From Candidatus Rhabdochlamydia sp. (GTDB taxonomy: Bacteria > Chlamydiota > Chlamydiia > Chlamydiales > Rhabdochlamydiaceae), in assembly GCA_051648645.1 (NCBI GenBank), contig JBOFFP010000006.1:1-56115 (forward strand): a stretch of DNA of 56,115 nucleotides, given 5' to 3'. Below are positions 50,737-52,904 of the stretch, one piece after another (the stretch's first letter is position 1; each line of letters begins with the position of its first letter). Position numbers and translations under genes: made by a program. A model generated the notes under the pieces. It saw only the letters and a list, made by a program, of their open reading frames with translations. It had not been told where the DNA came from and made no database searches.

Positions 50737-51699
50737 ATGCTAATCAAAAGACCTCGTCGCAATCGAAAAACTTTAGCCATTCGCTCTCTTTTGGCTGAAA
50801 CGACATTGCTTCCCAGTGATTTTGTACTACCTGTTTTTATTACAGCAGAGCAAGAGAAAAAGAGCCTTGTTAACATGCCCGGCGTATTTGCTTGGCCTAT
50901 TGAAAAACTCCTAAAAGAAGCAGAAATTTGGCATGCTAAAGGAATTTTGGCTATTGCCTTATTCCCAATTATTCCTCACGAATATAAAGATATAAATGCT
51001 ACTTATGCGCTTTCCGAAAAGGGGTTAATTCTTCAAGCTCTACAGAAATTAAAAAAAGAAATACCTTCTCTTTGTGTAATTACGGATATTGCATTAGATC
51101 CTTTTACCTCTCATGGACACGATGGAATTCTCAATGAGCAAAAAGAAGTTGTCAATGACAAGACGGTATCCATTCTTACTCAAATGGCTCTTTTACACGC
51201 GCAATTCGGTGCCGACTTAGTAGCCCCTAGCGATATGATGGATGGTCGTATCCGAGCTATTCGAAACGTGCTAGATGATCATCTTTTCCATCAAGTGGGA
51301 ATTTTAGCTTATACGGCTAAGTATGCCTCATGTCTTTATTCCCCTTTTCGTGATGCAGTAGGTTCTCGTCTACAACACGGAGACAAAAAAAGCTATCAAA
51401 TGAACCCAGCAAATTCTCGAGAGGCCATTCGTCAAGCCCTCTTAGATGAAGAACAAGGAGCTGATATCCTAATGGTAAAACCTGCTCTTTACTATTTAGA
51501 TATCATCACCAAAATGAAAGAAAAAATTACCTTGCCCATTTGTGCCTATCACGTCAGTGGAGAATATGCCATGATCATGGCTGCAGAAGAAAAAGGAATC
51601 CTTCAAGCAAAAGAAACTTTTCAAGAAGCCATGCTTAGCATCAAACGAGCAGGAGCCGATTTCATTTTTAGTTATGCCGTTCCTTTATTATTTCCTTAA
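50737..51699 (+). CDS. hemB: Porphobilinogen synthase
   Basis: RPRRNR, DIALDPFTSHGHDG, APSDMMDGR, MVKPA and YHVSGEY; start inferred at MLIKRPRR. Confidence 0.96.
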   Translation: MLIKRPRRNRKTLAIRSLLAETTLLPSDFVLPVFITAEQEKKSLVNMPGVFAWPIEKLLKEAEIWHAKGILAIALFPIIPHEYKDINATYALSEKGLILQALQKLKKEIPSLCVITDIALDPFTSHGHDGILNEQKEVVNDKTVSILTQMALLHAQFGADLVAPSDMMDGRIRAIRNVLDDHLFHQVGILAYTAKYASCLYSPFRDAVGSRLQHGDKKSYQMNPANSREAIRQALLDEEQGADILMVKPALYYLDIITKMKEKITLPICAYHVSGEYAMIMAAEEKGILQAKETFQEAMLSIKRAGADFIFSYAVPLLFP

Positions 51700-52904
51700 A
51701 AACTTAAAAGCGCCTTCATAGAAAGAGGAAGGATAAATTTCAAGATAGGCTTTTCAAAACCATTAAAGGTGGAAGCAGCAGAAATGGTATATGCCCCCAT
51801 ATTTTCAAAAATGATCCAATCTCCAATGTTAAGCTGCGGAAGATAACACGTTTTCAAAATACAATCCATCCCATCACAGGTAGGACCCCAAATACTACTT
51901 TTTTGAAGTTTAGGCTCAGAGGAAGAATTAATGATCTGATAGGCCAGTGGTTCAATAAGCGCATGATCAAATATGAGGCAGTTAAATGAGCCATATAGAC
52001 CGTCATTGACATAGTACATACTCAAATCCTCTCCCAAGAGAGATAGCTCACGTTTAGCGATTATATTTGTACAGAGTGTGAATGCAGAAGTCATAAAATA
52101 TCTACCAGGCTCAGCAATTATTTCAATATCAGAACAAACAGGAAAGTATTCATCCAATTTTTCATTTATGATATTTGCCATATTTTCAAAAAGAACCATA
52201 TCTTGTTTAGAACCAGGAAAACCGCCTCCAATATCTAAAAAAGAGAAATCAAAGCCAAAGGTTTTTGCTAATGCAAAAACCCGGGCAGATGTTTCTAAAG
52301 CAACAGAGTAAGCTTGCATATTTTGACAACTGCTTCCTACATGAAAGCTCACACCAATTACATTAAGATCTAGATCCTTAGCTACACGAAGCAAATTAGG
52401 TATATGTTCCTCATAGCAACCAAATTTCATACCAAGCTGACAGATGGATTTACTATCATCTACTTTTATGCGAAGAACCATTTTAGCATGGGGGAATAAT
52501 TTCTTTATTTTGTAAAGTTCCAATTCATTGTCGAATGTCATGATATCAACGCCCATGGAAGCGGCATACTTAATAAAGGAACTTGCCTTACAAGGGTTAG
52601 CGTAAATGATAGAGGAACTATTAGCTCCTGATTTTAATACAGCATCAATTTCTCTTTTGCTAGCACAGTCAAAGCCTGCTCCTAAAGAAACAAGAAGGTC
52701 TAGAACTGTAGGACAATCGTTACATTTTACAGCATAGTATGGATGCACTCGAGGCATGAGTTTTTTCCAAAGATTGTATTTATAGGCAATATCGCCAAGA
52801 TCTACTACGTAAAATGGATCTTCCCAACCTTCTCGAGCGGTTTCCTTTATGATATCCGATACGCTTTTGTCGACATCTATTTCAACGACTGTGCTTGCAA
52901 TCAT
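51696..52904 (-). CDS. odc: Ornithine decarboxylase, eukaryotic-type (fold-type III PLP enzyme)
   Basis: YAVKCND, GFDCAS, YANPCK, SFHVGS, DIGGGFPG, AEPGRY, NDGLYGSFNC, WGPTCDG and NMGAYT..ASTFNGF. Confidence 0.95.
   Translation of the reverse strand: MIASTVVEIDVDKSVSDIIKETAREGWEDPFYVVDLGDIAYKYNLWKKLMPRVHPYYAVKCNDCPTVLDLLVSLGAGFDCASKREIDAVLKSGANSSSIIYANPCKASSFIKYAASMGVDIMTFDNELELYKIKKLFPHAKMVLRIKVDDSKSICQLGMKFGCYEEHIPNLLRVAKDLDLNVIGVSFHVGSSCQNMQAYSVALETSARVFALAKTFGFDFSFLDIGGGFPGSKQDMVLFENMANIINEKLDEYFPVCSDIEIIAEPGRYFMTSAFTLCTNIIAKRELSLLGEDLSMYYVNDGLYGSFNCLIFDHALIEPLAYQIINSSSEPKLQKSSIWGPTCDGMDCILKTCYLPQLNIGDWIIFENMGAYTISAASTFNGFEKPILKFILPLSMKALLSF

Follow-up and report, generated by a model that had tools for sequence, protein, structure and literature searches.

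We analysed a 56,115-nucleotide contig of Candidatus Rhabdochlamydia sp. (assembly GCA_051648645.1, contig JBOFFP010000006.1; this whole stretch of DNA is referred to here as the window), which carries close to one end a gene, odc, for an ornithine decarboxylase (ODC) of animal type. Very probably this intact gene goes back to one acquisition from an arthropod donor, an arachnid being the most probable, and its product has its role inside the bacterium, on a route leading from arginine to spermidine. Transfer of odc from a eukaryote to Rhabdochlamydia is already known, since it has been in print for Rhabdochlamydia helvetica from 2019 (PMC6490308); in the full-text literature on Rhabdochlamydia together with ornithine decarboxylase or polyamines, only that paper and PMC9723776 were relevant. 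The present analysis adds a more divergent carrier of the gene, its locus between hemB and a DUF2608 gene, and its distribution over the genus with losses and broken copies, together with its placement among pseudoscorpion, scorpion and spider sequences, the loss of the C-terminal tail, the ratio of non-synonymous to synonymous substitution rates (dN/dS) and the co-loss of arginase.

Origin and distribution of the gene

A search against 5.8 billion proteins placed nine chlamydial proteins (72–95% identity), one of them labelled 'Chlamydiae bacterium', at the head of the best 120 matches listed. From the tenth match onward the named proteins in that list were those of chelicerates at 53–61% identity (Stegodyphus, Oedothorax, Caerostris, the pseudoscorpion Cordylochernes, the scorpion Hadrurus, the horseshoe crab Limulus, and mites), followed by those of other animals. 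A careful tree (IQ-TREE, LG+C20 with posterior mean site frequencies (PMSF), 58 rows, 458 columns, rooted on fungal ODC) was built from the ODC of the window, 49 of the 120 listed matches (nine chlamydial, 31 named and nine unnamed top matches) and eight of 150 representatives, six of them named (a fungus, a bird, an insect, a brachiopod, a tick and a mite). The other 71 listed matches, mostly unnamed but including one fused protein, were dropped.

The 10 chlamydial ODC rows of this tree form a single clade (100/100) on a stem of 0.44 changes per column. They lie within a 39-row chelicerate clade (100/99*) and, inside it, within a 27-row group of spiders, scorpions and pseudoscorpion (89/90), where they are sister to the pseudoscorpion (92/93) and then to a scorpion (93/97). 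A quick second tree, with a different set of rows, three long rows omitted and a root on two distant chlamydial ODC-like proteins, repeats this placement (95*, 97*; Chelicerata 98*). In an approximately unbiased (AU) test, a topology that keeps the 33 arthropod rows as one group and leaves the chlamydial clade outside was rejected (delta lnL 38.2, p 0.0175), and this rejection of a placement outside the arthropods supports an arthropod donor. An arachnid is most probably that donor as a best estimate from the trees, with nesting in the chelicerates favoured rather than secured. The proposal of the first-pass annotation, namely a captured eukaryotic gene for putrescine synthesis, is thus supported by the similarity ranking, by a maximum-likelihood phylogeny (mainly animal ODCs under a fungal root) with its second tree and AU test, and by the restriction to one genus and the pathway partners described below.

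Two other database sequences touch on this phylogeny. P0030, which carries the nr label 'type III PLP-dependent enzyme [Acinetobacter baumannii]' (PLP, pyridoxal phosphate), groups with the ODC of the scorpion Centruroides (100/100) and looks like a mislabelled arthropod sequence rather than a second uptake by a bacterium. P0183 is a tail-less ODC of 402 amino acids, 44% identical to the window ODC and containing both Pfam domains, which is encoded on a 147.5-kb contig; in the careful tree its branch is very long and lies close to the fungal root.

Close copies of odc occur in seven of the nine genomes of genus g1, i.e. in the window's own and in six of the eight others (78–82% identity). The other 39 genera of the family (129 family genomes examined) and the other 211 genera among 401 sampled Chlamydiota genomes (212 genera) yielded none. 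Three family genomes gave only matches of 25–27% to the ODC, which represent other fold-III decarboxylases, and two Chlamydiota genomes of other families encode a different ODC-like gene, 38% identical and branching far outside the animal clade. These two ODC-like genes (L035 368–1624, minus strand, in G221; L036 317–1594, plus strand, in G213) encode 418 and 425 amino acids, respectively, and the G213 protein starts with a hydrophobic, signal-peptide-like segment. The closest public loci are titled Candidatus Rhabdochlamydia or Chlamydiae metagenome-assembled genomes (MAGs), with ODCs 77–81% identical to that of the window.

The published R. helvetica gene, speC (Pillonel et al., 2019), belongs to the same orthologue group. 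PMC6490308 reports two 'lysine/ornithine decarboxylases' in that species, one of them partial, together with transfer from eukaryotes, a phylogeny and a complete polyamine pathway, and gives Stegodyphus (60.25%, text) and Parasteatoda (59.34%, Table S6) as the best non-chlamydial matches of speC. The window ODC is about 80% identical to the named Rhabdochlamydia MAG copies but belongs to another member of the genus that has diverged further (78–82% to the other copies). A second, partial odc copy spanning residues 268–402 (79–84% identity) was seen on short contigs of two relatives (L021 586–981 in G108; L022 and L005 in G107). These resemble the 'partial 145-aa' copy reported for R. helvetica (PMC6490308), and no such partial copy is present in the window's genome.

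The surroundings of odc are largely shared across the genus. Its neighbour hemB, 87–91% identical across relatives, is the vertically inherited chlamydial anchor of the locus and adjoins odc in four of six relatives' loci (G102, G103, G104 and G106, the last with ~2.3 kb inserted); it was not seen in the 1.3 kb up to the contig end in G108, and its position was undecidable in G107. The DUF2608 gene adjoins odc in five of the six (G102, G103, G106, G107 and G108, not G104). The gene itself is a single uninterrupted frame with an ATG start and no intron, and its composition (36.8% GC; 29.5% at third codon positions, GC3) resembles that of six neighbouring genes (34.1–39.0% GC; GC3 24.6–30.2%). 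Nei–Gojobori dN/dS was 0.10–0.17 for odc in all 10 pairs drawn from five genomes, which indicates purifying selection, and 0.065–0.107 for hemB in 10 pairs, the synonymous rates (dS) of the two genes being similar for matching genome pairs. Taken from sequence comparison, the acquisition of odc appears to be single and ancient, with vertical inheritance since.

Both ODC-less members of the genus retain hemB and the block upstream of it. In a four-gene tree (1,936 columns) they nest among ODC-bearing lineages (100/98*, 100/99*), with the window's genome branching first, and their lack of odc is therefore secondary. Beyond hemB, one of them carries transposases of insertion sequence (IS) type and the other unrelated membrane proteins. 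In the former (G101, L032 4700–8368), three or more complete or partial transposase genes that look IS630-like and IS110-like stand beside hemB, which suggests IS-mediated loss of the odc–DUF2608 segment.

A scenario consistent with these data would have an ancestor of the arthropod-associated Rhabdochlamydia take up an intron-free copy of odc once from an arthropod (an arachnid is most probable), with insertion between hemB and the DUF2608 gene. The gene would then have been inherited vertically, drifting to bacterial base composition and losing the C-terminal tail of ~45 residues carried by its arachnid relatives. Such an arachnid signal would link the beginnings of the genus to arthropod hosts and may help to read the host history of uncultured relatives. 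On a more speculative view of that history, odc would, if this is true, be the trace of an ancestor that lived in arachnids and gave rise to all members of the genus, those now recovered from soil, water and air samples among them.

The protein and its polyamine pathway

Both halves of a fold-III decarboxylase, a PLP-binding TIM barrel at the N-terminus and a beta-sheet domain at the C-terminus, were found by Pfam in the 402-residue protein (PF02784, E 4.1e-79, residues 36–271; PF00278, E 5.4e-26). A sequence search of the PDB gave 425 bits for mouse ODC (7ODC; E 2.9e-126), 422 for human ODC (1D7K/2OO0), 395 for Trypanosoma brucei ODC (1QU4/1F3T/1NJJ), 325 for antizyme inhibitor 1 and 257 for the chlorella-virus (PBCV-1) protein A207R (2NV9/2NVA). 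The likeness to mouse ODC is far beyond chance. Bacterial lysine/ornithine decarboxylases (Selenomonas 5GJM, 218 bits; Vibrio 2PLJ, 186 bits) and diaminopimelate decarboxylases (LysA, ~100 bits or less) belong to the same superfamily and share its Pfam domains but are much more distant. All eight matching NCBIfam models (LysA, Lys-Orn decarboxylase and SpeA equivalogs) stayed under their curated cut-offs (e.g. TIGR01048 (lysA), 155.2 versus 297.9; NF052544, 57.5 versus 700), so that no bacterial name applies; a nesting among bacterial lysine/ornithine decarboxylases, the possibility that the first-pass annotation had set against its own proposal, is thereby refuted.

The phosphate-binding glycine loop DIGGGFPG and the motif EPGRY are defining motifs of eukaryotic ODC. 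Both are intact here (residues 224–231, with GGGFPG at 226–231, and residues 265–269, respectively) and conserved across the animal rows, and all seven motifs quoted earlier as animal-like are present (residues 31–39, 51–63, 99–106, 149–162, 296–314, 336–345 and 366–383). Retention of the PLP lysine, the catalytic cysteine and the aspartate, likewise claimed from the letters, holds in a HMMER alignment to mouse and human ODC, in which K60 corresponds to K69, D313 to D332, and C343/D344 to C360/D361. The lysine, Cys343 and both substrate-binding aspartates are conserved in all six aligned chlamydial ODCs; the roles of human C360, D361 and the second aspartate are given in PMC4595762. The protein is therefore likely to be a catalytically competent, dimeric, PLP-dependent enzyme.

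The end of the ODC matches human residue ~419, within helix 411–421 and ahead of the degradation tail at 424–461 (limits from PMC4595762), in agreement with the initial claim of a protein of 402 amino acids without the vertebrate tail. Tail and loop were compared in an alignment of six chlamydial sequences with arachnid, insect, bird, cnidarian and fungal ODCs. The chlamydial proteins stop 8–20 residues past the conserved core, and the C-terminal tail of 45–50 residues, present in four arachnid, horseshoe-crab, insect and bird rows, is missing in all six; they also have a shorter surface loop (equivalent to mouse residues ~297–311). No signal peptide and no N-terminal extension were found, the N-terminus being colinear with those of arachnid ODCs in the alignment. 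Twelve antizyme contacts are listed for human ODC (P113, Q116, Q119, D134, V137, R144, L166, F170, L330, Y331, D361 and N398; PMC4595762). Six are identical in the window ODC (P104, D125, L157, F161, D344 and N381) and six differ (A107, F110, L128, K135, I311 and F312). Positions 110, 311 and 312 have the same or a similar residue in arachnid rows, and 107, 128 and 135 vary among these rows; the differing contacts are thus uninformative on whether antizyme binding was kept or lost.

Metazoan ODC1 is ~52% identical to the window ODC over 380 residues and shares its two-domain build, its PLP lysine and the active-site Cys and Asp that reach across the dimer interface, whereas the window ODC lacks the tail needed for antizyme-stimulated proteasomal degradation, has the shorter loop, and is encoded by an intron-free gene of bacterial composition in a bacterial genome. 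The ODC of T. brucei is stable and is not known to carry a degradation tail, and thus offers an obvious parallel to a long-lived ODC that lacks one. It has the same fold and is eukaryotic, but it is the protist's own gene and not a transferred one, and the window ODC is closer to animal ODCs; its antizyme binding is described as weak (PMC3207831). PBCV-1 A207R is another case of a eukaryote-type fold-III decarboxylase captured by a non-eukaryotic genome, here shortened to a minimal 372 residues, although its bearer is a virus rather than a bacterium and its score much lower.

The window makes up all of contig C6 in a 12-contig assembly of 1.67 Mb, estimated as 93.45% complete and 0.24% contaminated. 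This genome (G000) also encodes an arginase (282 amino acids, contig C8) and adjacent speD and speE genes (contig C3). odc is its sole PF02784 gene, and no Orn/Lys/Arg decarboxylase of the aspartate aminotransferase (AAT) fold (PF01276) was found in the genome, which is only 93% complete; ODC is thus the only visible route to putrescine. The result would be a patchwork pathway in the bacterial cytoplasm, in which arginase converts arginine to ornithine, ODC converts ornithine to putrescine, and SpeD with SpeE leads to spermidine, and which would free the symbiont from host polyamines. Arginase is present in all three ODC-bearing genomes tested and was found in neither of the two ODC-less ones, whose losses of ODC and arginase lie on separate branches of the four-gene tree; five related genomes are few. 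The polyamine pathway is reported as complete in R. helvetica and Rhabdochlamydia porcellionis and incomplete in other members (PMC9723776), and a complete one has been called unusual for chlamydiae in the literature. Animal-to-bacterium gene transfers are rare, and odc is a clean case: an obligate intracellular bacterium has retained a housekeeping enzyme of animals intact under selection and joined it to bacterial SpeD, SpeE and an arginase in what would be a complete pathway.

The arginase gene (L007 1477–2325, minus strand, contig C8) matches Rhabdochlamydia copies at 79–85% and then metagenome proteins at ~50%, the named matches after Rhabdochlamydia being bacterial MAGs (Chlamydiales, Parachlamydiaceae, Verrucomicrobia and Francisellaceae). 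PMC6490308 suggests a eukaryotic origin for this gene, rocF, with five eukaryotic entries among the 99 RefSeq hits of its own table; no such origin is evident here, as no eukaryote occurs among the best 120 matches listed. Directly beside the arginase gene lies that of a protein of 413 amino acids with a USP (ubiquitin C-terminal hydrolase) domain of eukaryote type (L007 2428–3669, minus strand; PF00443, E 1.4e-35), a candidate host-directed deubiquitinase by its domain.

Alternative explanations

The absence of the tail invites a different view of the protein, already hinted at in the first-pass annotation as manipulation of host polyamine or antizyme control, in which a tail-less ODC would be delivered to the arthropod cytosol (e.g. 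by type III secretion, which chlamydiae use; PMC9723776), raising putrescine or titrating antizyme. Without the tail the ODC would resist antizyme-driven degradation there, since tail removal stabilises mammalian ODC while activity is kept (PMC4595762), and a stolen host enzyme, having escaped proteasomal destruction, would be turned against the host's polyamine control; half of the listed antizyme contacts are identical to the human ones. These identical contacts are, however, also catalytic or structural, the other half differ and say nothing on binding, and the protein has no signal peptide or added N-terminus. Relaxed selection in a cell that has neither antizyme nor proteasome would account for the tail loss just as well, and the co-loss with the arginase of the bacterium agrees with a metabolic task for the ODC there. 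We saw no support for delivery into the host or for interference with antizyme, and we consider such an effector improbable. A little less probable still is a changed or lost function, either as a decarboxylase of another basic amino acid or as an inactive protein resembling antizyme inhibitors. The PBCV-1 homologue of eukaryotic ODC was deposited as an arginine decarboxylase (PDB titles of 2nv9/2nva), animal antizyme inhibitors are ODC paralogues, and the stem of the chlamydial clade is long, but true ODCs score above the antizyme inhibitor and the viral enzyme, the catalytic and substrate-binding residues are kept in the six aligned chlamydial proteins, dN/dS indicates constraint, and an arginase that supplies ornithine co-occurs with odc.

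Both remaining alternatives concern the origin of the gene, and we give neither any appreciable probability. Arthropod-associated metagenomes hold host DNA and the best non-chlamydial matches are arachnid, so mis-binned host DNA, or a chimeric join between hemB and odc as once feared, might be imagined. This reading is refuted by the locus shared with relatives (at least five other genomes of the genus) and by bridging contigs. Among contigs of other public runs aligned to window positions 50700–53900, one of 9,928 bp from run X3 spans the entire region from hemB through odc to DUF2608 with 41 differences, one of 18,651 bp from run X1 extends from hemB to position 52294 and bridges the hemB–odc junction, and one of 217 bp from run X5 crosses 51584–51800 with zero differences. 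The intron-free frame, moreover, is found 51.7 kb along a contig of 56 kb that carries chlamydial genes, its GC3 is like that of its neighbours, and no animal ODC among the matches listed exceeds 61% identity. A transfer in the reverse direction, from a Rhabdochlamydia-like bacterium to arachnids, draws on the fact that an unrooted tree alone gives no direction; against it, chelicerate ODCs stand within an animal tree that broadly tracks species (myriapods as sister, deuterostomes and cnidarians outside), and odc occurs in one of the 212 Chlamydiota genera sampled.

An arthropod-derived ODC acting in the polyamine pathway of the bacterium thus remains our preferred explanation, and several observations weigh against parts of it. 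For the donor, an AU-tested topology in which 29 chelicerate rows exclude the chlamydial clade was not rejected (delta lnL 3.6, p 0.40), and in the careful tree the branch joining the clade to the pseudoscorpion carries no star. The groups for the tests were chosen with the tree already in view, unnamed rows being assigned to chelicerates by tree position, and the tree has a single non-animal root, the fungus, with plant, protist and giant-virus ODCs and bacterial lysine/ornithine decarboxylases outside it. As to function, we infer ODC activity and substrate from conserved residues. Contigs of an RNA-library run (X7) cover four stretches of odc, as well as parts of hemB and DUF2608, but neither transcription nor its strand or level can be read from assembled contigs, and carry-over of DNA is possible; uncovered stretches in X5 and X7 carry no weight either way. 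The gene is dispensable within the genus, being absent from two of its nine genomes, and it is broken in two MAGs (in G103 by a TAG or a change of frame, in G106 by division into two frames), breaks that could be assembly errors. Finally, of the two ODC-less genomes, one keeps an intact speE and the other a broken one, so that the pathway genes were not lost strictly together.

Gene neighbourhood

Features of the odc locus are collected in Table 1. Pfam identifies the genes around odc as a double-domain ThyX, a Trp/Tyr permease, hemB and the DUF2608 gene. The convergent hemB and odc share the plus-strand letters TTAA, so that their stop codons overlap by 4 bp, exactly the tail-to-tail arrangement read from the sequence at the outset. 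A promoter and terminator scan of positions 51500–53200 gave six promoter-like sites against 6.4 ± 2.4 in shuffles; since this count is no higher than in the shuffles, the promoter scan is uninformative.

Table 1. Coordinates of odc, its key codons and adjoining features in the window.
Feature	Position	Strand	Basis
odc coding sequence, 402-amino-acid metazoan-type ornithine decarboxylase	51696..52904	-	Open reading frame (ORF); Pfam; 425 bits to mouse ODC; trees
Lys60 codon, PLP Schiff-base lysine (= Lys69 of mouse/human ODC)	52725..52727	-	Alignment, offset +9 to mouse ODC; AVKCN at residues 58–62
Asp313 codon (= Asp332 of human ODC, substrate-binding), in NCLIFDH	51966..51968	-	Alignment to mouse/human ODC
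Cys343–Asp344 codons (= human Cys360–Asp361; catalytic Cys and second-subunit substrate-binding Asp)	51873..51878	-	Alignment; roles from PMC4595762
TTAA, shared stops of convergent hemB (+) and odc (-)	51696..51699	.	Direct sequence reading; ORF ends
AT-rich spacer between divergent odc and DUF2608 gene, 187 bp	52905..53091	.	Direct sequence reading
AGGA, possible ribosome-binding site, 11 nt before the odc ATG	52916–52919	-	Direct sequence reading
hemB (porphobilinogen synthase)	50710..51699	+	Pfam ALAD, E 4.8e-124; NCBIfam NF006762 above cut-off
DUF2608 gene, divergent neighbour of odc	53092..53859	+	Pfam PF11019, E 3.6e-58

Fragments of a PD-(D/E)XK nuclease-family transposase (PF12784) lie at the contig end (window positions 54944–56113). 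An ORF of 78 amino acids (55140–55376; E 8.6e-11) matches the N-terminal part of the model and an open-ended one of 197 amino acids (55520–56113; E 1.3e-13) its C-terminal half. This transposase family has been highlighted as one exchanged among arthropod endosymbionts (PMC6490308).

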